NCBI GenBank assembly: GCA_038884615.1 | Contig: JAWABL010000003.1 | Span: forward strand, 9,038 to 73,037 | Source: Candidatus Woesearchaeota archaeon | GTDB lineage: Archaea; Nanobdellota; Nanobdellia; Woesearchaeales; DSVV01 | Direction of reading: 5' to 3' | DNA: 64,000 nucleotides | Part shown: piece by piece, positions 3,200 through 63,341 of the stretch | Position numbering within the stretch: position 1 is the stretch's first letter | Layout of the letters: each line of letters starts with the position of its first letter | Program-made: the position numbers and the translations under genes | Notes under the pieces: model-generated | What the model saw: the letters and a program-made list of their open reading frames with translations, nothing else | What the model was told of the DNA's origin: nothing | Database searches by the model: none

Positions 3200-4219
3200 T
3201 TATTCTGAAAAATATTTATAGTATATGCTACATGATCCCTCAGAGCTGACCATACATGCGCCCATAGGTGTTTGAGGCTTGCATCTTGACTTGAATAAAG
3301 GGCACTCAACAGGGAATATTTTGCCTTTAATTACTTCTCCACACTTACAACCTTTCTGCTCTTTTGCCTTTGGAACTCTTTTAAAAATCTCTTTATATAT
3401 TAGTTTTGCATTTTGACTTGAATACCTCTTCTTTATTTCAAGCCCACTCCTAGGGATTGTTCCTAAACCACGCCATTCTGCATCGCATTTTTCAAAACAT
3501 TCTGCTAAAACAGCCTGTGCCTTTTTGTTGCCTGAGGGATTTACAACCCTCTTGTATTGGTTAAAGACTATATTCTTATTATTTCTTATCATCTTAAGAA
3601 GCATAAGGATTGATTCAAGCATGTCTTCGGGCTCAAACCCAGTTATTGCCTGCGGTTTTTGAATTATCTCATACGGCTTGAGACCGATAATCGCTGAGAC
3701 ATGACCTGGATTAATAAAACAGTCAATTTGTGAAGAATCGGCGACTGCCTTCATTGCCTCGGGCATGGTTTTATGGCAAGAATATACTAAAAGCCCCTTT
3801 TTAATAGCGACGGCTGTCATTGGGGCAGTTGTTTCAAAGCCAATTCCAAAAAAAACAGCATCTTTAAGTTTGAGCGCATCCATAACTGAATAAACAACAT
3901 GCACATTTGCACCATTTGTCCGTGCTTCATCAAGGCTCATTCTTGTACCTGGCACTTTAATCATATCTCCATATGTAGCTACAGCAACACCTGCATTTGC
4001 AAGTGCGATAATATTATCTATATCTTGTTGTGGAGTTACGCAAACAGGGCACCCAGGTCCTGAAATAAGCCTAACATTAGAAGGAAGAACATTCCTGAGT
4101 CCATACTTTGCAGCTGTTACAGTATGAGTACCACAAACTTCCATTATGTTTACTTGTCTTTCTATTTTTCTTGCTTCAACTCTTATTTTTTCAATAAGTG
4201 CATCAAACCTACGATTCAT
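3200..4219 (-). CDS. hypD: Hydrogenase maturation protein HypD
   Basis: Contains the signature GPGCPVC and the CGTHT motif. The listed ORF begins at 4270, but the likely start is the internal Met (MNRRFDALIEK...) at 4219, which abuts the hypC stop. Confidence 0.88.
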   Translation of the reverse strand: MNRRFDALIEKIRVEARKIERQVNIMEVCGTHTVTAAKYGLRNVLPSNVRLISGPGCPVCVTPQQDIDNIIALANAGVAVATYGDMIKVPGTRMSLDEARTNGANVHVVYSVMDALKLKDAVFFGIGFETTAPMTAVAIKKGLLVYSCHKTMPEAMKAVADSSQIDCFINPGHVSAIIGLKPYEIIQKPQAITGFEPEDMLESILMLLKMIRNNKNIVFNQYKRVVNPSGNKKAQAVLAECFEKCDAEWRGLGTIPRSGLEIKKRYSSQNAKLIYKEIFKRVPKAKEQKGCKCGEVIKGKIFPVECPLFKSRCKPQTPMGACMVSSEGSCSIYYKYFSE

Positions 4220-15326: not shown

Positions 15327-17030
15327 TCAAAACCGTGGTGTATATTTTTTTAGCTGTTCATGTATCTTTTCTACATTTCCAACAAAATCAGAAAACAGAA
15401 TACTATCAAGCTTCTTACTATTTGTATTTATCATCCTTTCCAAATCTTTTACATAGCTATAGCTTTTAAAAAAATTTTTATCATTAAGTAATGCAGAATA
15501 AAGTTGAGGGCCCCATTGTTTAAGGTAGCTCAGATAATCATCAATTTCTTTTATCTGTTTCACTATTTTCTTTTTATCGTACTCCGTAGACCATGAGATA
15601 GAGAAACGATAGTCATTACGAGGCTTAGTAAGTTTTGGTGGTTCTGGATAAAAGAACTCAATTTTATAATTACCTTCAAAAGACCCTACTTTAAGTACCA
15701 ATTCAAGTTTGCTAATACGACCATATAAATTATTTTGGACTTTATAAGTAACCTTAACCTCATTTTTTCCTTTTATAAGAAGGCATGGAAACCTATTCTT
15801 AAATACTGCTTGGGGAATTCCATTAATATACAGTTCCTTTAGCAAATAAGTGAATGGAATGTTTGGGTGGGGAAAGGTTTTAATAGAGAAGGAGAGTTCT
15901 TCTTCTACATCTGTGTCGCTATTGTTCATGATGATGAAGGTACTCTCTATTTTCTTATCAATCCTGAATCTAAGCTTTCTATCAAGAAATAACCCTCTTG
16001 TGTCTGGTGTTAAAATCTTAATATTTGGTGTGATTTTCTGACCTTGCCTTTTTTGTTGGTGTCTTTGAGTTTGCTGTTGCAGAGCAGTAGTTGTTTGAGG
16101 TCGTCTTATACTTCTATCATTCTGTTTAAGATTATCTTTTTTTGTTTCAGCAGAACCTTCAGGTTTAATGGCTAGCTTGCCTTGCTTTTGAGACTCTTGC
16201 GGCGACGCTTTTAGATTTTGATTGTCAGGCATTATGTACGACGGAATTGCTTGTCTAGATGAAGGATAGTTCTCAGATTTGCTTCCGAATTTTGGAGCAT
16301 ATGAGTGTTTTAAGTAAGATTGAGGTGCGCTAGAAGCAGGTTGTTTATCGTTAAAGTCGCTTATTTTTTGAGTGGGCATAGGACTCCTTTGCTCTGGTGC
16401 GCCAAGAGGCGGCATAGGCCATTTAGCGACCTCGCTTGTTGTTGTGTCTGTAAACTTCTCAGTTACACAGATTATAATTATGATTATCCCTATTATTGAC
16501 AAAATAAGTCCGACTGCATAAAGAAGGCTTCCCATACCTGTTCTCTGTAGCCAGGCAAAGAACTGTGGGACCATTGCTTCTGACATAAGATAAACAAGTA
16601 TATAGGCGAACGCCACTGCGCATCTTGGTTTTGCTCCAAACCCAATAATAAGCTGATAGAACATAACACCGAAAAGAAGAAGTAATGCTACAATTGCTAT
16701 TGGCCAAAAATTCCCTATCCTAAATGTGCCGCCGCTTATATATTCAAAAAAAGCAACAGACAATGCAAGCAGAAGCCCTATGCCAGTTGATGCGGCGTTT
16801 CCAAGCCTGCTTTTTAAAGTAAATTTTGCAATTCCACCAAAAATTATTAGCCAAACAAGTAGGTCTATTATAAGGTAGTATTTATCATAATTAGGCCCAA
16901 ACTGAAGTTTTTCAAGAGCCTCAAAGACAGGCCGCAGTGCATTTTCTTGGGCGGAAACGACTGGAAGTGTGATTAAAACAGCAAAGAGAATCATAACAAA
17001 AGGAACTGTGTTTCTTTTCTGCTGTCGCAT
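15327..17030 (-). CDS. Membrane protein: N-terminal ~190-aa polytopic domain, a Pro/Gln/Ser-rich disordered linker and a C-terminal ~230-aa globular domain. Function unknown.
   Basis: 567-aa ORF. Hydrophobic helices in the first third, a low-complexity PQS-rich middle, and no recognisable catalytic motif. Confidence 0.6.
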   Translation of the reverse strand: MRQQKRNTVPFVMILFAVLITLPVVSAQENALRPVFEALEKLQFGPNYDKYYLIIDLLVWLIIFGGIAKFTLKSRLGNAASTGIGLLLALSVAFFEYISGGTFRIGNFWPIAIVALLLLFGVMFYQLIIGFGAKPRCAVAFAYILVYLMSEAMVPQFFAWLQRTGMGSLLYAVGLILSIIGIIIIIICVTEKFTDTTTSEVAKWPMPPLGAPEQRSPMPTQKISDFNDKQPASSAPQSYLKHSYAPKFGSKSENYPSSRQAIPSYIMPDNQNLKASPQESQKQGKLAIKPEGSAETKKDNLKQNDRSIRRPQTTTALQQQTQRHQQKRQGQKITPNIKILTPDTRGLFLDRKLRFRIDKKIESTFIIMNNSDTDVEEELSFSIKTFPHPNIPFTYLLKELYINGIPQAVFKNRFPCLLIKGKNEVKVTYKVQNNLYGRISKLELVLKVGSFEGNYKIEFFYPEPPKLTKPRNDYRFSISWSTEYDKKKIVKQIKEIDDYLSYLKQWGPQLYSALLNDKNFFKSYSYVKDLERMINTNSKKLDSILFSDFVGNVEKIHEQLKKYTPRF

Positions 17031-23304: not shown

Positions 23305-24591
23305 ATGTATAAAACAGGCGATAAGGTAAGAATAGTCACTGAAAAAGATGAGGTAACAGGCATTTTTATGCCACGTCCTGAAATTCTTGATAATGATTTT
23401 GTTGTTGTGAAGCTTGAAAACGGCTACAACATTGGCATAAAAAAGGAAAGGATAAGAGAGATTCTGCTTGTAGAAAAGTACATCCCTACTGAAACTACAA
23501 CTGTAAAAATAAAGTACAACCCTAACCTTCCTACCATTTCTGTGCTTTCAACAGGAGGAACAATATCTTCTCGCATTGACTACCGAACAGGAGGCGTACA
23601 CGCAGACTACACCGCGGAGGATTTTGTTCAGATGTTGCCTCATCTTGCAAGCATTGCAAATATAAAGGCAAAGAAGGTAGCGTCTATAATGAGCGAGGAC
23701 ATGTGTCCGTCTGACTGGAGGATGATGGCACGGGCGATTCGGAAGGAGTTTGAGGAAGGCGCAGACGGAGTCGTAATAACTCATGGCACAGACACTCTGC
23801 ACTTCTCAACAGCAGCTGTTTCTTTTATGCTTAAGAATCTTACAAAACCGGTTGTGTTTACAGCTTCGCAGCGTAGCATTGACCGCGGCTCAAGCGACGC
23901 GTTCATAAATCTCGGATGCGCAATAATAGCAGCCGCCTCAGACATCGCAGAGGTTATGACCTGCCTACACGGAACAATTGACGATGAATATTGCCTGCTT
24001 GTGCGTGGAACAAAGGTCAGAAAAATGCACAGTTCAAGAAGAGATGCCTTCAGGCCTATAAATGAGAATCCCATAGCAAAGGTATTCCCAAGTGGAAAAA
24101 TCGAAACTATAAATCAATGTTTTAGAAAGCGCTCAGATGGGATGCCTGAGCTTGATGACGCGTTTGAGCCAAAGGTTGCTCTTGTGCTTGCCTATCCAGG
24201 CATGGAACCTGAAATAATTGACTTTTATATTGCGAAGGGTTACAAAGGGATAGTGATATCTGCGAGCGCGCTTGGGCATGTGCCTACAAACAACCCCGAG
24301 TATTCCATACTGCCTAGCATTGAGCGGGCCACTGGAAAAAACATTCCTGTTGTCATAGCAAGTCAAACGATATATGGGAGGGTACATCCATATGTGTACA
24401 CAAACCTAAGAAAGCTTTCAATGCAACTCGGTTGCATTTATGCTGAGGACATGCTTCCTGAAGTTGCCTATGTAAAGCTTGGCTGGGTTCTTGGTCACAC
24501 ACAAGATAAAAAAAAGATAAAGGACATGATGCTAAGCAACATTGCTGGAGAGATAAGCGAACGAAGCAACGCACAATGCTTTCTCTTTTAA
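23305..24591 (+). CDS. gatD: Glutamyl-tRNA(Gln) amidotransferase subunit D
   Basis: 428 aa: N-terminal GatD-specific domain plus an asparaginase-like domain (STGGTISS, HGTDT). Confidence 0.9.
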   Translation: MYKTGDKVRIVTEKDEVTGIFMPRPEILDNDFVVVKLENGYNIGIKKERIREILLVEKYIPTETTTVKIKYNPNLPTISVLSTGGTISSRIDYRTGGVHADYTAEDFVQMLPHLASIANIKAKKVASIMSEDMCPSDWRMMARAIRKEFEEGADGVVITHGTDTLHFSTAAVSFMLKNLTKPVVFTASQRSIDRGSSDAFINLGCAIIAAASDIAEVMTCLHGTIDDEYCLLVRGTKVRKMHSSRRDAFRPINENPIAKVFPSGKIETINQCFRKRSDGMPELDDAFEPKVALVLAYPGMEPEIIDFYIAKGYKGIVISASALGHVPTNNPEYSILPSIERATGKNIPVVIASQTIYGRVHPYVYTNLRKLSMQLGCIYAEDMLPEVAYVKLGWVLGHTQDKKKIKDMMLSNIAGEISERSNAQCFLF

Positions 24592-24788: not shown

Positions 24789-25397
24789 ATGCCCCAACCC
24801 AGCCTTCTTAAGTTTGGGAAGACTCGGCCTGTAAAAACCGAGCCGGACAAGAATGCAGTAGAGTTCTTAAAATCACAAAAAAAAGGAAGGTTGCTTGACA
24901 TAGGGTGTGGAGAGGGGCTTGAGTCGGCCTATGCTGCTTCCTTAGGATTTGATGTTACAGCAATAGATTCAGATTACGAATCAATAAAAATAGCAAAGGA
25001 AGCAAGAAGAGGCGCTAAGTTTAGGTACATTGACTTTTTCGCATTTGCAAAAACAGCAGCAAAAGACCAGTTTGATGTCGTCATAGACAACTGCTTTTCA
25101 CACTGCTTGCAAAAATCAAGGCTTGAAAAATACTATCTTGAGCTCAGCAAGATTTTAAAATATAGAGGAATGCTCTATATAAAGGCGTATTCTGATAAAG
25201 GAAACTATGCAAAAACTCACTGCCCAAATCGCAGATGGACCAAAATTGATGGAAAATATTATTACTTTTTCAGCAAAGAAGAGATTGAAGACAGGCTTAA
25301 AAAGAGGGGATTTGAAATTACAAACTACGAGCATGTTTATGAAGGAGACTTCGCTTTTAATGTGATTCACGCAAGGCTAAGGCTAACAAAACTGTAG
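24789..25397 (+). CDS. Class I SAM-dependent methyltransferase
   Basis: Motif I LLDIGCGEG plus an acidic motif II and the following Rossmann elements. 202 aa. Confidence 0.75.
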   Translation: MPQPSLLKFGKTRPVKTEPDKNAVEFLKSQKKGRLLDIGCGEGLESAYAASLGFDVTAIDSDYESIKIAKEARRGAKFRYIDFFAFAKTAAKDQFDVVIDNCFSHCLQKSRLEKYYLELSKILKYRGMLYIKAYSDKGNYAKTHCPNRRWTKIDGKYYYFFSKEEIEDRLKKRGFEITNYEHVYEGDFAFNVIHARLRLTKL

Positions 25398-25447: not shown

Positions 25448-26425
25448 ATGAATATGTACAGAAGAGAGTTTATTAGAGAGGCTATAAAGGGGCTTGCTGT
25501 CTGTTCTTTTCTTGCAAGCAAAGATATTTTTCTCGGCTTTAATGTGTGTTCTGCTCAATATTCGCAAAAACCAAATTACCAGATGCAGAATTCAAGAGGG
25601 TATTCTTTAAGAACGCCTCAGAAATCTAAACCTGGCACTGCTCCTATTATAGACTATTATGGCGTTTTTCCAATTACTCTTCCATGGCAACGCGACGAAA
25701 AATACACCACCTCATTAATTGAAGAAAGACACAAGGAGCATCGCTATAATCTTCTACTTATAAACTCAAGCTACAGCCTTGAACAAATGCAGAGTATATT
25801 AGAGCAAGGAAGGATTATCATAAATAAGATAAGAGAAACAGAGAAGAAAAAAAGCGACATGGTTATAGCGGCCAATTATGCAGAAAGCTCCTTTGAACAG
25901 TTTAAACAGTACCTGGCTGCCGCCGAGTGGGCAAAAAAAAATAGCCTGGATGTTGTATGTTTTGGAGAGAGGAGCAAAGATATTAAAAAGATTGATATGA
26001 GCGAAAACGAGCTTATATACGATCTAAAGGATCTGGCGTTCGCATTAAGGAGATGCCAAGAAAGAACCTTCAACAGCGAAATGCTTCATATTGAATCACA
26101 CTATCTTCATCTCTCGCTCCTTCTTGAGATGGATGTAAAGGCATACCAACAGAGCATTGGAGGCACACTTAAGGACGCATTTTTCGGAGACGCTATACTA
26201 TGTACAAAAGAAGAAAAAGAGAATGATGCTAAATACATTAAAAGAAAGATAGAGGATTATAAAGCCATGTCAACAGTATTTTTTGGTCCTGCACATAAAC
26301 TAGTTAATACGATAAGGAGTAAAGGCATTCCAGATATTTTAGGATACAAGCACGAGATAATATTTCTTCCCGCGCGCAAAAACAACGCAACCACTAGGCC
26401 CTGTAACATTGGATTTTTCTGTTGA
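25448..26425 (+). CDS. Hypothetical protein with a Tat-like N-terminal signal (RREFIREAIKGLAV)
   Basis: 325-aa ORF. Twin-arginine-like motif followed by a hydrophobic stretch. No catalytic motifs recognised. Confidence 0.5.
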   Translation: MNMYRREFIREAIKGLAVCSFLASKDIFLGFNVCSAQYSQKPNYQMQNSRGYSLRTPQKSKPGTAPIIDYYGVFPITLPWQRDEKYTTSLIEERHKEHRYNLLLINSSYSLEQMQSILEQGRIIINKIRETEKKKSDMVIAANYAESSFEQFKQYLAAAEWAKKNSLDVVCFGERSKDIKKIDMSENELIYDLKDLAFALRRCQERTFNSEMLHIESHYLHLSLLLEMDVKAYQQSIGGTLKDAFFGDAILCTKEEKENDAKYIKRKIEDYKAMSTVFFGPAHKLVNTIRSKGIPDILGYKHEIIFLPARKNNATTRPCNIGFFC

Positions 26426-26478: not shown

Positions 26479-28275
26479 ATGGATTTTAAGAAAATAGGAC
26501 TTAAGTGTGGAATTGAAATTCACCAGCAGCTTGCCGGCAAGAAGTTGTTTTGCAACTGCCCTACAAAAATAATGGACACTGCGCCTGACCAAGTGGTAAG
26601 ACGACGGCTTAAAGCGGTCACAGGCGAGACAGGAAGGGTTGACGAAGCAGCCGCTCATGAAGAATCGAAGGAAAAAGAATTCATATATCATTTTTATTCT
26701 GACTGCAACTGCCTTGTGGAACTTGATGAGGAGCCTCCACAGCCAATGAACAAAGAGGCTCTTGAAACTGCGCTTTTAATAGCAAAGATGCTGAACGCAG
26801 AACCTGTTGATGAGATTCAAGTCATGCGCAAAACAGTAATTGACGGTTCAAACACGACCGGTTTTCAACGCACCGCGCTTGTTGCAAGGAACGGGTTCAT
26901 AGAAATCTCTGAAGGAAGGATAAGGATACCGACAATATGCATTGAGGAGGAAGCTGCAAAGATAGTGGAAAGAGAGGGGGAATGTGATGTTTATAATCTT
27001 TCAAGGCTAGGAATTCCTCTTATAGAGATTGGGACTAATGCGGACATAAGGTCGCCTGATGGCGCGCGTGAGGCCGCCGAGAAGATTGGTATGATTTTAA
27101 GATCAACTAACAGAATAATGCGCGGCCTTGGGACTATAAGGCAGGATGTGAACATAAGCATTGCCGGCGGAAACAGAGTTGAGATTAAAGGAGCACAGGA
27201 CCTAAGAATAATTTCAAAGCTTGTCGAGTACGAAGCAATAAGGCAGGAGAACCTCATAAAGATTGCTAACGAGCTGAAAAAAAAACAATTAAATCCAGAC
27301 ATAATAGATGTGACTGCTGTTTTTTCTGAAACAGAGTGCGCGGTTATAAAAAAGTCAGGAAGAGTTCTTGGCATTAAGCTTGAAGGTTTTGCTGGTTTTC
27401 TTGGTAGAGAGATTATGCCTGGCAGAAGGCTTGGAACTGAGTTGTCAGATTACGCGAAGACGGCAGGAGTGGGAGGCATTTTCCATTCAGACGAACTTCC
27501 GAACTATGGAATAAGTAGCGCAGAAGTTGAAAAATTAAGGTCTGTATTAAGGTGCAGGGCAGATGATGCGTTTGTTCTTGTCGCAGACAAAAAAAGAGCT
27601 GAAATGGCGCTTGTTTTTGCGACGAAGAGGGCCAAGCTTTGCTTTGAGGGCGTCCCGAAAGAAGTCAGAAAAGCAAACCCAGATGGAACAACCTCGTTTC
27701 TCAGGCCCATGCCCGGAGAAGCAAGAATGTATCCCGAAACTGATGTTCTCCCAATAACACCGCACAGCAAAATGCTAGTTGTGCCTGAGCTTGTAGAGAA
27801 CAGGGCGACAAGATACGTAGCAGAATATAATTTAAGCAGGGACATGGCGATTATCATTGCAAAATCGGAAAGATTTGAGATGTTCGAGCTTTTCGCAGCC
27901 GAGTTCACTAAACTTAAGCCGGCTTATATCGCAGAGCTGTTGTTCTCCCTGCCGCAGAACATAAAAAGAAAGCAAAAAATTGATGTAAAACTAACACAGG
28001 ACCAGTATGAAAATCTTCTTAATCTAATAAACAAAGGGATGCTTGCGAAAGAAAGCGTTGTAGACGCAATGATTGAAATTTCGCAGGGAAGATTTAACCT
28101 AGAAAAATATATGCAGATACAGGATGAAAAGCTAAAAGAGGGCCTTAAGGAAATAGTAGAGAGACACAAAGGAGCCAGTTTTTCTGCGATTATGGGCGAA
28201 GCAATGAAAGTATACAGGGGAAAGGTTGATGGAAAGAGGATAAGCGAGATTCTAAGGGAGATTTACGATTTCTAA
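26479..28275 (+). CDS. gatE: Glutamyl-tRNA(Gln) amidotransferase subunit E
   Basis: 598 aa. GatB/E catalytic-core motifs (GLKCGIEIHQQL, KLFCNCPT) and the archaeal GatE-specific insertion and tail. Confidence 0.9.
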   Translation: MDFKKIGLKCGIEIHQQLAGKKLFCNCPTKIMDTAPDQVVRRRLKAVTGETGRVDEAAAHEESKEKEFIYHFYSDCNCLVELDEEPPQPMNKEALETALLIAKMLNAEPVDEIQVMRKTVIDGSNTTGFQRTALVARNGFIEISEGRIRIPTICIEEEAAKIVEREGECDVYNLSRLGIPLIEIGTNADIRSPDGAREAAEKIGMILRSTNRIMRGLGTIRQDVNISIAGGNRVEIKGAQDLRIISKLVEYEAIRQENLIKIANELKKKQLNPDIIDVTAVFSETECAVIKKSGRVLGIKLEGFAGFLGREIMPGRRLGTELSDYAKTAGVGGIFHSDELPNYGISSAEVEKLRSVLRCRADDAFVLVADKKRAEMALVFATKRAKLCFEGVPKEVRKANPDGTTSFLRPMPGEARMYPETDVLPITPHSKMLVVPELVENRATRYVAEYNLSRDMAIIIAKSERFEMFELFAAEFTKLKPAYIAELLFSLPQNIKRKQKIDVKLTQDQYENLLNLINKGMLAKESVVDAMIEISQGRFNLEKYMQIQDEKLKEGLKEIVERHKGASFSAIMGEAMKVYRGKVDGKRISEILREIYDF

Positions 28276-28349
28276 CTATAAGCGAAATTACAGGAGAAAA
28301 CACTTCTGCATCTTTAAATAACTCTTTAATATAAAATATACTTTTTGAA

Positions 28350-28930
28350 TATAAAAGTGACCTCCTTCCCGCATTAAAGTGCGGGGCTTCCGGTGAAGTG
28401 GCTTAGGAGCTTTTGGTGTACATCCATTTGCTTCCGGATGTAGTTGTCAACGGTTTCTACAGTGTTATACCCCACACTGCTCACGAACGCACAGGGACTG
28501 AAGAAAGGTCCTCGATGATAACGTAACCGAAACTTTGGCTGCCGTCTGAACAGCTGATAGCTCAAGTTTCCTTTCAGCAACTGCAACACCTTTCTGACTC
28601 ATACTCGGTGAGCTTCAACACTCATGTGTATGTGCTCTGGCATCACGAATAGCTCCCTTATTGTGATGTGATACCTGTCTGCTGTCTCTCTCAAAATTTC
28701 CTCGCAAAGATTTTTATACTTGTCCTGCTCAAACATCTTGTACAAGTACTTTGTGCGCATATTGTTTCAGTTCCATCTTGCTCGCCTTGGGCGAGCAAAA
28801 GCTCACGCTAACTTGAATTGGATGGTGCGTGGCGCGAAAATCCGCTCGCCACGCTTTTTTATTTTTGTACTAGAAAAAGCTTTTGAGCCATTCATCTCAC
28901 GCACTAAAGTGCGGAGATTTCTGGTTCATA
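28350..28930 (-). mobile_element. Decayed IS200/IS605-family element (~580 bp): subterminal hairpins at both ends and a tnpA disrupted by an in-frame TGA
   Basis: Similar hairpins CCCGCA-TTAAAG-TGCGGG (28367-28384) and CGCAC-TAAA-GTGCG (28900-28913) bracket a Y1 HuH transposase gene. A 9-bp perfect hairpin TTGCTCGCC-TTG-GGCGAGCAA (28778-28798) lies just upstream of the tnpA ATG. GC content is clearly higher than the surroundings. Confidence 0.6.
28374..28760 (-). pseudogene. tnpA: IS200-like tnpA (HuH Y1 transposase) with an in-frame TGA at 28599-28601
   Basis: Translation from the ATG at 28760 gives MRTKYLYKMFEQDKYKNLCEEILRETADRYHITIRELFVMPEHIHMSVEAHRV, then TGA, then VRKVLQLLKGNLSYQLFRRQPKFRLRYHRGPFFSPCAFVSSVGYNTVETVDNYIRKQ. 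This matches the IS200 TnpA HuH motif, the LKGKSS motif, and the W..GYFV.TVG...E.I..YI.NQ motif containing the catalytic Tyr. Confidence 0.65.
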
Positions 28931-29031
28931 TTTGTTAATATAAAATAGATATAAAATAAAAATATTTATATAAACAAAATAAAGGATGTAAATGTAAAAA
29001 AGAGTATAATTGAAAAATAGATAATCAAAAA

Positions 29032-30303
29032 ATGCATAAAAATGGACAGGTAACTATATTTATTATTATAGGAATTATTATTTTAAGTTTGCTTGCACTC
29101 ATTCTAACTGAGATTAGACCTGGTGTAGAGAAAGAAGAGATTATATCAAGCAATTTGCAGTTTATAGAGAGAGTGAAAACCCACATAGGAGAGTGTTCTC
29201 AGAAAACTCTTGAGCATGCTGTATATTTCACAGGAATGCAGGGAGGATATACACATCCGCCAAATGAGCCAACACCAATGGAGTTTGATGGATACATAGT
29301 TCCATTTTATCTGTTCAACAATGAAACATACATCCCAGATAATGAATTATTAGAGAAAGAGATGGAGTCATATGTAATTGAGCATATAGATGAATGTGTG
29401 AAAGGACAACACACTTTAAATTACTCAGGGTACAAATACAAAACAGGAGCAGTAAAAGCAGAGATAGTTATAACTCAAAACAAAATAAAGATGAGAATGG
29501 AGTATCCGATGGAGTTTTTTACCAACAAAACAAGCTTCAAAATAAGCGACAGTTACTTTTCAGAATTAAGATTTGATTATGCCAAAAAAATAAATCTATT
29601 CCAAGAGATTGTTGAACAGTTAAAAAAAGAGCAGAAAACAATTCCGCTTGGGATACTGGGTGATTTATCAGAAAAAGAAAATTTCAAGTTTGGCATAGTG
29701 GATATAGGGCTTGGAAATAATATCATATACTTTGTATTCAATGAGTCTATAAGCCCAGGAAAACCGTACCTGCATATATTTGCATTTACAAGAGAAGCAA
29801 TTTATGAGAATTTAGCACCCCATGTATTTGTTGAGAAAAAAGCGGTTGTTGGTTACCCCTTTCATATGCAAATCAACATAAGTCCGCCATTTTCTGACAC
29901 TACAGACCTTTTTGAGATAAATACAACAACAGGAGAGATTGATTTTACCCCTAAGGAGGAAGATGTAGGCGAACATTTTGTATATCTGGAAGGGAGAAAT
30001 AAAGAGAGCATTACTCTTAAATTGAGCATATTGCCTGCGAAAAGTGAGCTGGCAATAAAGGATATTGGAACAAAAGAATGCAGTGTAGGTGCCGAATGTA
30101 TGATTAACATTTCAGTAGAAAGCAACGAAACGCATAAAGTATTTTTCATTGTTAACAGCACTCTTGATATGGGTGACACAACTAATGGCATAATCAGCTT
30201 TGTTCCTGATAAGTCTCAAAAAGGCATACATCGTGTAAGGGTCGATGCGTACAGTAGTGCAGGGTCGCACGATTTTGAATTTTTCAATATAATAATAGAG
30301 TAG
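29032..30303 (+). CDS. Secreted or membrane-anchored protein (423 aa) with a pilin-like N-terminal hydrophobic segment and C-terminal Ig-like beta domains. Its N-terminal ~250-aa module is paralogous to that of the 57309-61094 protein.
   Basis: N-terminus MHKNGQVTIFIIIGIIILSLLALIL. Conserved blocks shared with the 57309 protein (I(G/E)(E/S)C, G(M/A)(Q/T)GG(Y/V)(T/Y)(H/N)P, VKAEIVI/VTAKISK). Confidence 0.6.
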   Translation: MHKNGQVTIFIIIGIIILSLLALILTEIRPGVEKEEIISSNLQFIERVKTHIGECSQKTLEHAVYFTGMQGGYTHPPNEPTPMEFDGYIVPFYLFNNETYIPDNELLEKEMESYVIEHIDECVKGQHTLNYSGYKYKTGAVKAEIVITQNKIKMRMEYPMEFFTNKTSFKISDSYFSELRFDYAKKINLFQEIVEQLKKEQKTIPLGILGDLSEKENFKFGIVDIGLGNNIIYFVFNESISPGKPYLHIFAFTREAIYENLAPHVFVEKKAVVGYPFHMQINISPPFSDTTDLFEINTTTGEIDFTPKEEDVGEHFVYLEGRNKESITLKLSILPAKSELAIKDIGTKECSVGAECMINISVESNETHKVFFIVNSTLDMGDTTNGIISFVPDKSQKGIHRVRVDAYSSAGSHDFEFFNIIIE

Positions 30304-30382: not shown

Positions 30383-33300
30383 ATGAAAATGAAAAAAAAG
30401 AAACTAAACATTATAGCTTGGTCTTTGCTGTTTATAATAACCTTGCTAATAACAAACGCACAGGAAAGTAATTTAGAAGAGAATACAAAAGCGGAGTATA
30501 ATGGGCTTATCTTTGGTACTGCACAGCAAGAGATAGTTACAAACCCAAGTGGAGATATTGTGTTAAGCGGAGGAGTACAAGTGGAGGTCTTGCCTACTTT
30601 CTCAGGAACTTTAATTGGTGGCTTTGGCGGCTGCATAATAAAAGCCGAAGGCACTACACTGATTCTTATAGAAAGATCAGTTGTGAAGATTAAAAATGGA
30701 AAAATAACCGAGATAATAAACGCGGATGTGAATGAGGAAGCGGTTTTAGCAGGCCACAAAGTTATTGGCAAAAGTATAAGTTTGATTTCGGATACGATTA
30801 GGTGTGGAGTGTCATGCACAATCGACGGTGTTCATATTAAAAATTTAAATCCAGAACAGCCACTCAAAATCTCTTTTTCTGAACAAGGTTTCTTGCTTGA
30901 ACCTGCATCCGTCAGCACAACTGCTGAAATTAATGGAGCGCGCATAAGACTCCATTATGGAAGTAGTATTAGCATAAATGATGGAAAGATTGCAGGATTC
31001 AAACTTGTCGACATACTTGACTCCGTGAACATTAATGGTTTTGATATCAAAGGGAATAAGCTAAGCTACAGCAAAGGTGAAATAAGTTTTTATAGGATTT
31101 CTATAAATCGCCTTAATTTTCAGTCTGGGTACTCCATTGAAGAAAATGTTAAAAATGTAATAACCTTATATGGCAATGGAGAGTTTGCTATCAAGAACGC
31201 AAACATGATTTATCAAACAAACAGAGAAGGAGAGGTTATAAGGCTTTATGAAGCAGGAGATTATCTTTTCTCAGGAGATAGTGAGGTAGAGTTTACCGCA
31301 CAAAACGCTAATTTTAGTGTTTATAATATAGCTGATAGCGTTATAAGGGTTACTGGAGTAACAGAATCAACAAAATTTTTTATTGGCGAATCACCCGAAA
31401 AAAATAGCTGCGGACAAGAAAAAAACTGCGTTGAGTTTACAAGCGCCCAAACATTATATTCCTCGCTTGAAAAGAAGAATAAAATAGAAATAAGTGGATA
31501 CTCAGACAGTTTCCCATTTAGGCTCGTAGACTCGCGAATCTCTGAAGATGCAGAGTTTTCTGTTGGTTCACAGAAGTTTTTATTTACGCAGAGAAATATG
31601 CAAGAGAGCATATCGGATACCGTGCTTCCAAAAGATTTAAATGCAATTATAATAAGGGATGAAAATGGCGGAAGGGTTATTGACTCTACAAGCTATACTG
31701 GCGTTTATGAAGAAATGAATGGAGAGAAGATTGCTTCATTCTCTGCCGAAGTAATGTCAAAAGTTTTAAGGGAACATGAAGAGAGACTGGGATTTTCTAT
31801 AGATAAGTTTCTAGTTGCTCAAGAGAACATAGATTCATTGCAGAAACAGGGCGTAGAAAAAGAGATAATAGATTTCGTACTTGAGTTATATAGGAATCCG
31901 GTATATCTGCTCAGCAAAGATGATATCTCATTCTTGGGGACTTACCTTAACAGGATAAATAAGGAGCACTCTTTTGCGTATGATGTTGTTAGGGAGTATA
32001 TTTTGAGAGAGAGAGAGTACAACGCCAATATCATTGATGAGCTTATCAACCTATACAAGGAAATGCCTAATAGCAGATTCTCAAGGGAGTTAATAACACA
32101 AATGAAACCAAGAGAGTTTTTAAGCCTTGATGCATTAAAGGACCTTGTTGATTTTTCAAAGGAAGAAGATGTCACAAAAATAAGTGACCTCTATTTTGAA
32201 ACAGGAGGAATTCGTGCAATGTCAGACCTTGCTTACCTGGCTAAAACTCATGAGGTAGGTGTCCATAGCTCGGATGACTTTTTTCATTTTATATATACAA
32301 TAATTGACTCCGGCTATGACAAACCGCCTGATTTAGCTTACCCTCCTGAAAAAATGAGGGATATGTACAGATTTTATCTGTACACAGCAAAAGACATGGA
32401 GAGGCTCGCTGTAAGAAAAGAGGGAGATCTTGCACCTGTTACCACATTTTTAGCACTTGAGTTATACATGAAACCGCTGGAAAAAGGGGATGAAAACACC
32501 CTCAATGCATTAAATGAGTTCAGCAACGGACAAGTAGAGTTTGATAGCATGTTATTTAAAAGTAAACCATCCTTTAAAGTGCTTCCTACAGGCCTTCTTG
32601 AGTATAAAGGAGAACCAATTGAGTATAAGAATTTAGACCCCTTAAAGAGGGTGGTTAGTTATATGGACTCTGTTGCTCTTGATGAATCAGTGTCTATTGA
32701 AGAGAGGGAAACACTGTCAGACTATCTTATGTATAAGTCACAGTCACTCTATTTGTATTTGAACGGCTTGCATAACAATAAAAATTTGCGAGAGGAGTTT
32801 GTTAAAAAAATCCCACCTGAATTGTTATTTTACATGATTGCATCATCAGAAAACAATTTTGGAACAATAAGTTATCCAAGCGGACCGCCACAGGTGTATC
32901 CAAGCAGTGAAGAGGTTGTATTGAATTACTATAAAAGCAAAGTAAATCCTCTTCAAGATGCTCTAAAGTATGAAGGACTTCCTGCCTATTCTAATTTTGT
33001 ATACACTCTATCTGACAGAAAACAGATAGACGGATTACTGATAGAAGCGTCACCAGAGGTACAAAGGCATTACACAGAATTTCTTCTTGAAGAGGTTACT
33101 AATCCTAAAGAGAGCGAAGAAGATTATTACAGCAGGACAAAAGTCGCGACTTTAACAATCGGAAGGATTCTGAAGAATGATAAGCAGGAAACCGCAGAGA
33201 CAAGAGAGATGCTTAAAGATGAGATTATCAGTGCGTTAACATCTGATGATTCAAACCTATATTTGCAGTATCTCGTTTTAGACAATAAGAATATTTTTTC

Positions 33301-34084
33301 AGAAGAGGAACTTGATTTATTAGGCTACGACAAAGAGAAGGAAGATTTTCCTAGCTTTGCTCAAAATGTAAAGGATGCTTTTGCATCCAAAAATATTGAT
33401 ATCAAGAGGCTAATTCGAAAGGAAAATGATGGGAGCTATATTTTGCCTTCTGCTATATTCTTCGGCTCACTTCATGAAAAGCAGGAGCAGTACCATTATG
33501 ATAACCTAATTAAAACACTGAAAGAAGATGGCTTTAAGGAGGTGTATCTTAAAGATGTAGAGGAATATTCAGGAAAAAAAATTTCATATGTGCAATTTGA
33601 AAAGATAGTGCCTGTTACATATGAAGATTCTGACGGGGGTCATATTTTAAATGTTAAGATTAAAGTTAATCTGTATCCTAGGATAGCAAGTGAATCGGAC
33701 GAAGTCCCAACAATTGTTTCAACCCGCGGACATGTAGGGACTTCAGCGGCCACATTAGAAAGTTTTCAAGATAAGACGGCACCCGAATTAGTCATCTTTG
33801 GAGGATGCTATGAGTACAGAGACGCTTTTAAGTTTTTCAGCGAATATTCTAATATGCAAATGGCATACGCAACAACTGGAACAGGTAGAGGAGAGATAAA
33901 TAACTACATATTAACAGGTGTCTTTGAAGCTATACAAAAAGGCATTACAGATAGGGAGAAAATGGCGCAGTTTATTGATTCATATGTTCAGACAAAAATA
34001 AAAATGCGCAGTGATCTTAGATTGGCTTTTGAAAGCTACTCACAAGTACCGCAACTGGCAAAAATAAGATATAGTGAAGAATAG
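30383..34084 (+). CDS. Large secreted protein (1233 aa): Sec signal peptide, N-terminal beta-rich ~400 aa, then a long alpha-helical Tyr/Glu/Lys/Leu-rich region. Function unknown.
   Basis: Signal peptide MKMKKKKLNIIAWSLLFIITLLITNAQ. No TM anchor and no recognisable catalytic motifs. Confidence 0.65.
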   Translation: MKMKKKKLNIIAWSLLFIITLLITNAQESNLEENTKAEYNGLIFGTAQQEIVTNPSGDIVLSGGVQVEVLPTFSGTLIGGFGGCIIKAEGTTLILIERSVVKIKNGKITEIINADVNEEAVLAGHKVIGKSISLISDTIRCGVSCTIDGVHIKNLNPEQPLKISFSEQGFLLEPASVSTTAEINGARIRLHYGSSISINDGKIAGFKLVDILDSVNINGFDIKGNKLSYSKGEISFYRISINRLNFQSGYSIEENVKNVITLYGNGEFAIKNANMIYQTNREGEVIRLYEAGDYLFSGDSEVEFTAQNANFSVYNIADSVIRVTGVTESTKFFIGESPEKNSCGQEKNCVEFTSAQTLYSSLEKKNKIEISGYSDSFPFRLVDSRISEDAEFSVGSQKFLFTQRNMQESISDTVLPKDLNAIIIRDENGGRVIDSTSYTGVYEEMNGEKIASFSAEVMSKVLREHEERLGFSIDKFLVAQENIDSLQKQGVEKEIIDFVLELYRNPVYLLSKDDISFLGTYLNRINKEHSFAYDVVREYILREREYNANIIDELINLYKEMPNSRFSRELITQMKPREFLSLDALKDLVDFSKEEDVTKISDLYFETGGIRAMSDLAYLAKTHEVGVHSSDDFFHFIYTIIDSGYDKPPDLAYPPEKMRDMYRFYLYTAKDMERLAVRKEGDLAPVTTFLALELYMKPLEKGDENTLNALNEFSNGQVEFDSMLFKSKPSFKVLPTGLLEYKGEPIEYKNLDPLKRVVSYMDSVALDESVSIEERETLSDYLMYKSQSLYLYLNGLHNNKNLREEFVKKIPPELLFYMIASSENNFGTISYPSGPPQVYPSSEEVVLNYYKSKVNPLQDALKYEGLPAYSNFVYTLSDRKQIDGLLIEASPEVQRHYTEFLLEEVTNPKESEEDYYSRTKVATLTIGRILKNDKQETAETREMLKDEIISALTSDDSNLYLQYLVLDNKNIFSEEELDLLGYDKEKEDFPSFAQNVKDAFASKNIDIKRLIRKENDGSYILPSAIFFGSLHEKQEQYHYDNLIKTLKEDGFKEVYLKDVEEYSGKKISYVQFEKIVPVTYEDSDGGHILNVKIKVNLYPRIASESDEVPTIVSTRGHVGTSAATLESFQDKTAPELVIFGGCYEYRDAFKFFSEYSNMQMAYATTGTGRGEINNYILTGVFEAIQKGITDREKMAQFIDSYVQTKIKMRSDLRLAFESYSQVPQLAKIRYSEE

Positions 34085-34251: not shown

Positions 34252-35178
34252 TTATTTTCTTATCATATCGTCTGACAAAAATACTGAAAGCCAGTTTCTA
34301 TCTACACTGTTTGCCTTAAATTCTTCCCTTAGTCCTGTTCCATACCTAACTACAGTAACGGTTGTGCCCACATCAACTAAAGAAAACAAATCATCTATAT
34401 CCTCGTTTGAAAGTGCAAAACATCCGTGTGTCCAGTTGCTTCCGCCATAATTTCCGGGTTTGCCGCTTCCCCCTCCGTGAATTTCAATTTGCCCTCCAAT
34501 AGAAGTATTTTTTGCGATGACTCCTCTTTTTCTTAAATCGGCAAACCGTTCAAGGTTGGATTTATTTGGATAGTTAATAAGGAGTGCTTTATAAAAAACA
34601 GTTTGGCCCTTATCTTTCTTAGCTAAAATTGAGTATTTTCCTTCTGGAGACCTATAATCGCCTTCCTGTTGCTTATCAAATATTGGGTCATAGCCAAGTT
34701 CCAAAGGATACTGCCTTATTACCTGCCCATCCTTTAAAAGAGAGAGTGTATATTCCGACTTATCAATGATTATTGCACTTTGCTTAGTTCTTAATGAATA
34801 CCCCATTGCTTCATTAATCCATGACAAGTATTTCGTCAAATCTGAGTTATTAAATTCATATATGATGGCCATGTTCCTAGCATAACTTCTCCATTCATTA
34901 TCAATTATTCTTTTTTTTAAATCCTCAAACAACTCTCCAGACAGGTTTACCTTGTCTGAAAGTTCTTTTTCCGTTATATTTTTTAAAGTAGATTGTGGCT
35001 TACCACCAGAATTTGGAAAAAAGGTATTTGACTCTTTTAAATCAGGTTTATTAGTGCCAATAAAGTTAATACTATATTTATTAAGTGTAGACATACCTAA
35101 ATAAAGTAGTCCGGCAATGCAGCCAGCACTTATTGCAGCCCCTAAACCATTAGTGATATAATCTTTCATATTTTTCAT
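34252..35178 (-). CDS. L,D-transpeptidase (YkuD) domain protein with an N-terminal membrane anchor
   Basis: Catalytic motif IHGGGSGKPGNYGGSNWTHGCFALSNEDIDDL (His...Cys of the YkuD fold). N-terminal TM GLGAAISAGCIAGLLYLGM. Confidence 0.75.
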   Translation of the reverse strand: MKNMKDYITNGLGAAISAGCIAGLLYLGMSTLNKYSINFIGTNKPDLKESNTFFPNSGGKPQSTLKNITEKELSDKVNLSGELFEDLKKRIIDNEWRSYARNMAIIYEFNNSDLTKYLSWINEAMGYSLRTKQSAIIIDKSEYTLSLLKDGQVIRQYPLELGYDPIFDKQQEGDYRSPEGKYSILAKKDKGQTVFYKALLINYPNKSNLERFADLRKRGVIAKNTSIGGQIEIHGGGSGKPGNYGGSNWTHGCFALSNEDIDDLFSLVDVGTTVTVVRYGTGLREEFKANSVDRNWLSVFLSDDMIRK

Positions 35179-61838: not shown

Positions 61839-63341
61839 TTGTTGCTAATGGATAAGCGGCTAGTCTATTGGATACTTGGTCTTTCTTTTGTGATAACATT
61901 TGGAATAAGGCTTTACTTTGCATTTCAGTCTGAATATTTCAACACTGATTTCGCTTATTTTACCTTAAGACAGGTGGAGCATATAAGAAACATCGGATTG
62001 CCTCTCTACGAAGATCCGCTGAGCTTTTCCGGTCGGAGTTATATCTTTCTGCCTCTGTTCCACTACACTCTTGCCTTTTTTAGCTTGTTTATGCCTGTGG
62101 CGCTTGTATGCAAGATAGTACCAAATATACTTGCCTCTGCGATAATATTCATAGTTTATATGGTAGTCTTAAATATGACAAAAAATGAAGAGAGTTCGGT
62201 TGTCGCCGCGATTTTAAGCGGGCTGGTTCCCATCTATTTTGTCCAGACCCTAAACAGCATATCTATTTATTCGCTGTCTATACCACTAACAATAATAGCC
62301 CTGCATTTTTTCAGCCAGATAAATATTAAAAAAAACCCACTGCGCTTCATAGTTGTTCTTTGCCTTCTTCTTCTTCTGCACCCAAGCATATATATAATGA
62401 TATTGGCGCTTGTTATTTATCTTATACTGCTTGCTGCTGAGAACATTGAAATTGGCAAGGGCGAAGTTGAGATAACACTCTTTAGCATTTTTGTAACATT
62501 TTGGTTTCACCTCCTGGTCTTCAAACAATATCTTGCACTGCATGGATACAGAGTAATTTGGCAGAACATACCTGAAGAGATTTTATCAGCCTACTTCTCA
62601 AAAGTTAGCCTACTTGAAATCATAGGAGATATTGGGTTTATAACCCTTGTAGGCTCTATGGTGGTTTTGCTTTTTTATATTTTTAGAAGAAAGAAAAAGG
62701 GAGTCTATCTATTTGCAGCGCTTGGTTTCTCTGCTTCACTACTCCTTTATTTTAATATCATTGAAGTAACGGTTGGGTTGATTTTTATCGGCATTTCCGC
62801 AAGCGTCTTATTCGGAGAATTCCTAGTGATATTCAAGGAGTATACTGAGAAAAGTATCATCTCAGGAATAAGGAAGCAGGTCTTCGCTATTTTGATAGTA
62901 CTTATAATTGCAACGAGCCTTGTTACGGCAGTAAACTATGCTAGCAAAGAGATTAGGAGAACAATAACAGACATGGAAGTTGTTGGGATGATTGCATTAA
63001 AATCCATGACAAACTCAACATCAATAGTTGCGTCTACTCCTGAGGATGGACATTATATAACATACTTTACAAATAGAAAAGTAGTTATGGACACTAACTT
63101 CCTTCTTATGGAGGATGCACCTCTGCGATTTAATGATATAGGGCTGCTCTTTAAGTCTGCTATTATTAGACCTGACATACTAGATAAGTACAATATTAAT
63201 TATATATACTTTTCACCAAATGCAAAAAAGCGTTATAACATAACAGGCATATTATACGCCGGTAGCTGCCTGCAAAAAAGATACGACAACGGCGCTGTTA
63301 TAATATATGAGAACAGATGCAAGAGAGAAAATGAGGATTGA
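61839..63341 (+). CDS. Polytopic membrane protein of GT-C-like (ArnT/PMT/AglB-like) architecture. First of a tandem paralogue pair.
   Basis: 500 aa, more than 10 TM helices. Conserved block EDPLSFSGRSYIFLPLFHY in the first extracytoplasmic loop, shared with the next gene (NDPLSFQGREYIFDPYDY). Confidence 0.55.
   Translation: MLLMDKRLVYWILGLSFVITFGIRLYFAFQSEYFNTDFAYFTLRQVEHIRNIGLPLYEDPLSFSGRSYIFLPLFHYTLAFFSLFMPVALVCKIVPNILASAIIFIVYMVVLNMTKNEESSVVAAILSGLVPIYFVQTLNSISIYSLSIPLTIIALHFFSQINIKKNPLRFIVVLCLLLLLHPSIYIMILALVIYLILLAAENIEIGKGEVEITLFSIFVTFWFHLLVFKQYLALHGYRVIWQNIPEEILSAYFSKVSLLEIIGDIGFITLVGSMVVLLFYIFRRKKKGVYLFAALGFSASLLLYFNIIEVTVGLIFIGISASVLFGEFLVIFKEYTEKSIISGIRKQVFAILIVLIIATSLVTAVNYASKEIRRTITDMEVVGMIALKSMTNSTSIVASTPEDGHYITYFTNRKVVMDTNFLLMEDAPLRFNDIGLLFKSAIIRPDILDKYNINYIYFSPNAKKRYNITGILYAGSCLQKRYDNGAVIIYENRCKRENED

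Follow-up and report, generated by a model that had tools for sequence, protein, structure and literature searches.

A decayed tnpA-only element of the IS200/IS605 family downstream of gatE in Candidatus Woesearchaeota

When the reading frame of a transposase gene appears to be broken by a single stop codon, is the gene one mutation away from function, or is the stop the visible sign of wider decay? The question is raised by a short island of DNA downstream of gatE in Candidatus Woesearchaeota, within a stretch of 64,000 nucleotides that we refer to throughout as 'the window'. The original prediction held that this island is a relic IS200/IS605-like element whose transposase gene, tnpA, is full-length and carries one in-frame TGA. 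We conclude, with high confidence, that window positions 28357–28934 (minus strand; 578 bp) hold one decayed copy of a tnpA-only element of the IS200/IS605 family (IS200 group). The relic is an ordinary decayed IS. The prediction was right in kind, and in the key detail, the state of the gene, it was wrong.

The gene belongs to the Y1 HUH transposases. Read on the minus strand from 28760 to 28374, the island contains a 128-codon frame with an internal, in-frame TGA at 28599–28601. This frame matches the Pfam profile PF01797 (Y1_Tnp; E = 5.7e-20; 72 bits, cut-off 23), which each half of the frame also passes separately, and the NCBIfam profile transpos_IS200 (NF033573; 67.2 bits, cut-off 55). 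Both profile matches uphold the Y1 assignment, and the frame retains two motifs on which that assignment had drawn, HIH as the HUH motif and DNYIRKQ with the catalytic Tyr. The closest solved structure found by PDB search is the TnpA of ISDra2 (2XM3, E = 2e-10), followed by that of IS608 (2A6M). A protein search returned 168 homologs, up to 78% identical and nearly all 149–151 aa long; in the genome contigs searched, the best tnpA match is 76% identical. The relatives of the IS occur in Woesearchaeota and Nanoarchaeota MAGs, and when intact they are ~620 bp long with tnpA as their only gene. In all copies of the family the right-end hairpin overlaps the tnpA stop codon, and the elements end directly after tnpA. 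A search for further copies and for a tnpB/omega-RNA partner covered the window: none of the 23 window ORFs that were scanned with Pfam contains an OrfB/TnpB domain, and neither another copy of the element nor a solo hairpin occurs within the 64 kb.

The island was described at the outset as GC-richer, and it is. Its G+C content is 45.9%, compared with 38.3% for the window and 16.8% for the neighbouring intergenic DNA. Taken together with the profile matches, the HUH motif and catalytic Tyr, and hairpins (discussed below) that fold better than shuffled sequences, this contrast marks the relic as a real observation rather than a chance pattern. The neighbouring gene is indeed gatE (26479–28275, plus strand), and its product matches, at 100% identity, a protein from a Candidatus Woesearchaeota MAG. 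The relic begins 81 nt past the gatE stop codon and ends 97 nt short of the next ORF (29032), and it interrupts no gene. Other neighbours include gatD, a methyltransferase gene, and genes for A-type ATPase subunits and topoisomerase VI. A scan for promoters and terminators found no intrinsic terminator; its simple sigma-70 model is uninformative for an archaeon.

Several features of these surroundings can be recorded in their own right. The genes gatD (23305–24591, plus strand) and gatE are not adjacent: between them lie an ORF for a SAM-methyltransferase (24789–25397) and an unannotated 325-aa ORF (25448–26425, plus strand). The latter has no Pfam match, nor do four other long ORFs: 29032–30303 (plus strand; 423 aa) and 30383–34084 (plus strand; 1233 aa), both directly downstream of the relic; 15327–17030 (minus strand; 567 aa); and 61848–63341 (plus strand; 497 aa). 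The 308-aa product of 34252–35178 (minus strand) has the catalytic domain of a YkuD L,D-transpeptidase (E = 3.6e-21), here in the genome of an archaeon (Woesearchaeota). Also on the minus strand, 1982–2932 and 3200–4219 are an AIR-synthase-related (HypE-like) gene and a HypD hydrogenase-maturation gene, respectively, on this DPANN genome fragment.

The limits of the element emerge from comparison with related loci. The right-end boundary, ...GGAGGTCAC (right end ...CCCCGCACTTTAGTGCGGGGAGGAGGTCAC), is common to 13 of these, and the sequences beyond it are unrelated. Of 17 distinct left flanks, 15 have TTAA immediately 5' of the left-end boundary. Conserved motifs at both ends, sharply bounded, are present in at least 14 loci. 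TTAA precedes the window element and also those at L001–L003, L005–L007 and L025; the relative at L010, which is not preceded by TTAA, is an exception. One identical element, P0012, was recovered from ten places, which between them have eight different left flanks; seven of these end exactly in TTAA, and the eighth has TTAA one base further out. From the shared right end and the TTAA-adjacent left ends it follows that the window element comprises 28357–28934 and is inserted 3' of the TTAA at 28935–28938 (Table 1). The location originally given (28350–28930) therefore stands, and its limits are refined. There is no target-site duplication, the left flank not being repeated after the right end, and there are no terminal inverted repeats; similar subterminal hairpins occur at the two ends instead, in the same orientation. 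The family is mobile, as the presence of the identical P0012 element at no fewer than eight distinct sites attests. An empty site was sought through relatives of GatE in metagenome contigs, among which there is no close relative; in the protein collection, the GatE that ranks next is only 62% identical, and at this distance the intergenic DNA cannot be aligned for an empty-site comparison.

Table 1. Features of the relic element (window coordinates)
Feature	Position	Strand	Remarks
Whole IS200-type element, 578 bp	28357..28934	(-)	Left end 28934, right end 28357
Target and left cleavage tetranucleotide TTAA (C_L)	28935..28938	(-)	Outside the element; from flanks of P0012 and other relatives
Putative left guide tetranucleotide G_L (AAAT)	28917..28920	(-)	Directly 5' of left-end hairpin foot; invariant in family; by analogy with IS608
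Left subterminal hairpin IP_L (ATCTCCGCAC-TTTA-GTGCG-T-GAGAT)	28894..28918	(-)	10 bp, one bulged T; -8.2 kcal/mol, z = -4.95
Second left-end hairpin (GCGTGGCG...CGCCACGC)	28827..28854	(-)	DNA fold -11.5 kcal/mol, z = -3.2
Third left-end hairpin, perfect 9 bp (TTGCTCGCC-CAA-GGCGAGCAA)	28778..28798	(-)	-10.6 kcal/mol, z = -4.4
tnpA pseudogene (Y1 HUH transposase)	28374..28776	(-)	True start ATG 28776; stop TAA 28374-28376; Pfam, NCBIfam and PDB matches
Junction of 38-nt deletion	28749..28756	(-)	Between short repeats GCGCACAA and GTGCACAAA; alignment A2 columns 216-253
Out-of-frame patch, 17 nt	28593..28609	(-)	Holds TGA 28599-28601; alignment A2 columns 394 and 414-415
Putative right guide tetranucleotide G_R (GAAG)	28387..28390	(-)	5' of right-end hairpin; conserved in family
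Right subterminal hairpin IP_R	28367..28386	(-)	6 bp here (28368-28385), 8 bp in family consensus
Right cleavage tetranucleotide C_R (TCAC)	28357..28360	(-)	Cleavage 10 nt 3' of right-end hairpin foot

The two similar subterminal hairpins on which the prediction was partly based are present and are conserved in the relatives. They lie within a 23-nt direct repeat (28367–28389 and 28897–28919; 83% identical), and folded as DNA they are more stable than their shuffled counterparts (z = -4.95 and -2.68 for left and right). The left hairpin, IP_L, shows compensatory changes at four stem pairs among 9 relatives. The right hairpin, IP_R, reads CCCCGCACTTTAATGCGGGA in the window and CCCCGCACTTTAGTGCGGGG in the family consensus, two substitutions having shortened its stem from 8 to 6 bp. 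IP_R also encodes the C-terminus of TnpA, ...SPAL, together with the stop codon. If the guide G_R is included (28367–28390, minus strand), the coding stretch comprises the conserved C-terminus GSPAL, with the TAA in the hairpin loop; constraints on the protein and on the structure of the DNA therefore overlap there. Two further hairpins occupy the left end. The second follows just downstream of an A-rich tract on the tnpA strand, and is kept in 9 of 9 relatives, with one compensatory pair. The third, likewise kept in the nine relatives, has compensatory changes at four pairs, and its loop is GGAG in most relatives. This is the perfect 9-bp hairpin that had been placed just 5' of the ATG; it exists, but the ATG at 28760 is not the one that it adjoins. 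It stops 2 nt before the true ATG, at 28776.

Known members of the family suggest how such hairpins might be used. IS608 reads its cleavage sites through guides of 4 nt that lie 5' of the hairpin feet: at the left, G_L (AAAG) with C_L (TTAC), 19 nt 5' of the left-end hairpin, and at the right, G_R (GAAT) with C_R (TCAA), 10 nt 3' of the right-end hairpin (PMC3201880, PMC5934647). The base triplets also involve two nucleotides 3' of the hairpin (PMC3201880, PMC5934647), and a second left-end hairpin has been described for IS608, ISDra2 and IS605 (PMC5934647). In the family of the window element, the 4 nt 5' of the left stem are AAAT, if the foot is taken at CTC, with TTAA 18 nt upstream, and the two nucleotides 3' of the left stem are AT, as in IS608. 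The putative left-end guide AAAT and the target TTAA are invariant in the IS family. At the right end, all relatives finish in GTCAC or GTCAT, and their flanks diverge immediately beyond. The relatives at L012 and L025 have a putative guide of GAAA together with TCAT, a compensatory pair. Relative to IS608, the last guide position and the last cleavage position change together at both ends: from G:C to T:A at the left, and from T:A to G:C at the right. Comparison of the 4-nt sequences beside the hairpins, proposed as a check on the prediction, thus yields pairs (AAAT with TTAA; GAAG with TCAC; and the variant GAAA with TCAT) that fit the IS608 scheme. By this analogy, the guide and cleavage logic points to a probable IS608-like mechanism for the IS family.

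On the model of IS608 and ISDra2, the intact relatives most likely move by 'peel and paste' transposition of a single strand. TnpA would bind both subterminal hairpins, left and right, of the top strand (the minus strand of the window). Base interactions with the tetranucleotides would specify where the ends are cut: TTAA through AAAT on the left, TCAC through GAAG on the right. The element would be excised as a single-stranded circle, to be re-inserted 3' of another TTAA. The copy in the window was inserted 3' of TTAA and then lost 38 nt, which shifted the frame; losses of 1 nt and 2 nt further along the gene produced an out-of-frame patch containing the TGA.

These losses were read from a DNA alignment (A2) of the window copy with related loci taken from genome assemblies, the intact relatives of ~620 bp. 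Compared with the latter, the window copy has three deletions, of 38, 1 and 2 nt. The largest probably arose by slippage between GCACAAA repeats. It removes the stretch GVNVHHLEWC and shifts the reading frame, and the residues lost are 95–100% conserved in 110 homologs. This stretch forms the first beta-strand of the TnpA fold; its equivalent in ISDra2 TnpA, according to the alignment of the PDB match, is YHLIWCVKYR. Upstream of the deletion, the true start of the gene is in a different frame from the rest, where it encodes an N-terminal peptide, MELKQYAHKV, that matches the N-terminus of the family (homolog consensus MxLExKHxAHKVGVNVHHLEWCTKYRY). An exact search of JGI metagenomes for the deletion junction gave 0 matches, so the same 38-nt deletion was found in no other copy there.

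The two smaller deletions, GCTC[C]ACCG (1 nt) and CAGA[GC]AAG (2 nt), lie 17 nt apart and form the edges of the out-of-frame patch. Between them, the ancestral codons CCA CCG AGT ATG AGT CAG are now read CAC CGA GTA TGA GTC AGA. It follows from the shift imposed by the bracketing deletions that the TGA is the Met-Ser pair ATG-AGT read out of frame, and not, as originally proposed, a nonsense mutation of a conserved Ser codon. When the patch is restored to its ancestral frame, the repaired translation gives PSMSQ, which aligns with PPSMSQS in the family consensus; the homologs read ...SVExPPSMSQSKALQLLKG... at this point, and the window ...SVEA-HRV(stop)VRKVLQLLKG. Nor are the lesions confined to deletions. 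Five residues that are each 95–100% conserved in the 110 full-length homologs are substituted in the window copy: R to L in the KYR motif, H to Y, H to P, G to C and A to V. Such a copy cannot make an active transposase.

Other copies also show signs of damage or of recent movement. The copy at L025:661-1265 (P0078, 129 aa) is decayed by a 1-nt frameshift at its W-C-T codons, a spot that corresponds to one edge of the 38-nt deletion in the window; gene callers report it as a 129-aa 'protein' that starts MVTKYRY. P0080 and P0081, two further entries of 129 aa, may likewise be decayed. Within tnpA, L013 and L014, two loci of one MAG, break off at an identical point. In metagenome contigs, the P0012 element occurs with the same left flank and different right flanks at L018 and L019, and again at L020 and L022; these mismatches are likely to be assembly chimeras or the result of recombination across a multi-copy IS. 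And nearly identical elements are found at L001:3783-4401, L002:3783-4401 and L003:3783-~4400, in MAGs labelled Nanoarchaeota, Woesearchaeota and 'Methanosarcinales', which indicates either recent horizontal spread or mis-binned contigs.

If the relic encodes no working transposase, could it still be more than inert DNA? The most to be expected is that an intact copy elsewhere might move it in trans; otherwise it is inert. It keeps the full left end, both putative guide tetranucleotides, both cleavage sites and a right-end hairpin that is predicted to be usable, so mobilization of this kind is possible. That the relic actually serves as a non-autonomous element, mobilized in trans by an intact TnpA of the family, or that a small RNA affecting neighbouring genes is transcribed from its right end, which resembles HgcC, or from its structured left end, seems to us improbable.

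Very unlikely is the suggestion that the lesions are artefacts of sequencing or of MAG assembly, arising from the collapse of several IS copies, for example, and that the real locus is intact. The source is a MAG, and for the 1-nt and 2-nt deletions an assembly error is formally possible; copies of the IS do break or chimerize the assemblies of relatives, as at L013/L014, L018/L019 and L020/L022. As an overall explanation, however, assembly error is unlikely because of the 38-nt deletion and the five substitutions. Three indels, five substitutions at invariant residues and two substitutions in the right-end stem form a pattern of neutral decay rather than of consensus error; direct repeats flank the 38-nt deletion, the arrangement to be expected of real slippage; and decayed copies occur in relatives as well (e.g. 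L025).

Even less likely is the reading with which we began, namely that tnpA is full-length and disabled only by a nonsense TGA at a Ser codon, and hence a very young pseudogene, one step from function. In its favor, the frame of 128 codons is continuous apart from the TGA, and the HUH motif and catalytic Tyr are kept. But the profile alignments begin only at position 11 of 121 in Pfam and at 19 of 126 in NCBIfam, and the TnpA proteins of intact relatives, 149–150 aa long, have 22 more N-terminal residues. The TGA, moreover, is accompanied by the three deletions and the five changes at near-invariant residues, and the codons around it are out of frame, HRV(stop)VR standing where the family has PPSMSQS. 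The DNA alignment, the repaired translation and residue conservation each refute the single-nonsense claim. From the deletions and substitutions it follows that the gene is much more decayed than was first proposed, and that reads confirming the TGA would not by themselves save the proposal.

We give almost no credence to a functional gene in which the TGA is recoded (as selenocysteine, by reassignment to Trp or Gly, or by readthrough) or is bypassed by programmed frameshifting. Some candidate lineages do reassign TGA, and the two small deletions sum to 3 nt, which restores the frame downstream. Against this, the residues that flank the TGA mismatch the family whereas those of the +1 frame match; the GVNVHHLEWC stretch is missing and the true start is in another frame; and 0 relatives have a TGA or a frameshift at the same site. 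TGA was also correctly identified at the outset as a true stop elsewhere in the window, where it terminates 9 of the 35 long ORFs, and recoding is therefore neither needed nor supported. There is equally little to commend a REP-associated tyrosine transposase (RAYT), or another domesticated Y1 gene with REP hairpins, in place of a mobile IS: RAYTs too are Y1 HUH proteins flanked by hairpin repeats, and the NCBIfam RAYT model (NF047646) gives a weak match, but this reaches 27 bits where 80 are required, whereas the transpos_IS200 match is above its own threshold, the hairpins occur at the two element ends only, with no other copy in 64 kb, an identical relative occupies at least eight genomic sites with sharp IS boundaries, and the gene in the window is destroyed.

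A decayed IS200-type copy, then, is how the island should be annotated: as one element (28357–28934) with one pseudogene, and neither as two short ORFs nor as a gene with a recoded TGA. The wider lesson is that two frameshifts that compensate each other can pass for a 'single in-frame stop', a point relevant to scans for candidates for stop-codon recoding. The analysis also adds to the record an IS200 lineage that is active in DPANN archaea, compact (~620 bp), tnpA-only and targeted to TTAA; its guide and cleavage tetranucleotides, as predicted here, follow IS608 rules and co-vary in one case.

How does this lineage compare with systems already known? One resemblance is to an RNA. The Rfam model of HgcC (RF00062) matches every copy tested, at 21–39 bits (21.4 in the window; 39 in the best relative), and none of these copies reaches the Rfam gathering score of 50. 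The matching right ends are those at 28347–28473 (minus strand) in the window, L005:4298-4414, L001, L002, L006, L007, L008 and L010. The right-end hairpin of the IS family, together with its GAGGAGGUCA spacer, is nearly the same sequence as the 3' half of the model (CCccCGcccUUuAgggCGggGAGGAGGUCA), which makes HgcC RNAs look like right-end-derived RNAs of related IS200/IS605 elements. A link between HgcC and the IS200/IS605 right-end motif has already been published (Gomes-Filho et al. 2015, PMC4615843). Right-end-derived RNAs (sotRNA or omega RNA) serve IS1341-type tnpB elements, whereas the window element is without tnpB. Sub-threshold Rfam matches to L20_leader, OxyS and nuoG were rejected as noise.

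The closest parallel in organization is IS200 of Salmonella and E. coli. It, too, is a minimal element of ~0.6–0.7 kb, the sole gene of which encodes a Y1 HUH TnpA of ~150 aa. It lacks terminal inverted repeats, has subterminal hairpins, and has further left-end hairpins between its end and the start codon, one of them abutting the ATG. In IS200, the hairpin that abuts the ATG has a regulatory role. The family described here differs in being archaeal (DPANN) and ~620 bp long, in its TTAA target, and in a TnpA that is only distantly related, at the level of profiles; the copy in the window differs, in addition, in being a pseudogene. With IS608 and ISDra2, the family shares the TnpA fold family, their structures being the best PDB matches (2XM3 and 2A6M), a left-end hairpin with a bulged T followed by a second left-end hairpin, and left cleavage outside the element, ~18–19 nt 5' of the left-end hairpin, with right cleavage 10 nt 3' of its counterpart. 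The spacings are 18 nt (left) and 10 nt (right) in the window family, versus 19 and 10 nt in IS608, and AAAT/TTAA and GAAG/TCAC parallel the AAAG/TTAC and GAAT/TCAA of IS608. Unlike IS608 and ISDra2, the window family has no tnpB, its target is TTAA rather than TTAC or TTGAT, and its TnpA has low sequence identity to theirs (E about 1e-10). Set against the IS200/IS605 family as a whole, the element departs from what is known in its TTAA target and its lineage, and in nothing else.
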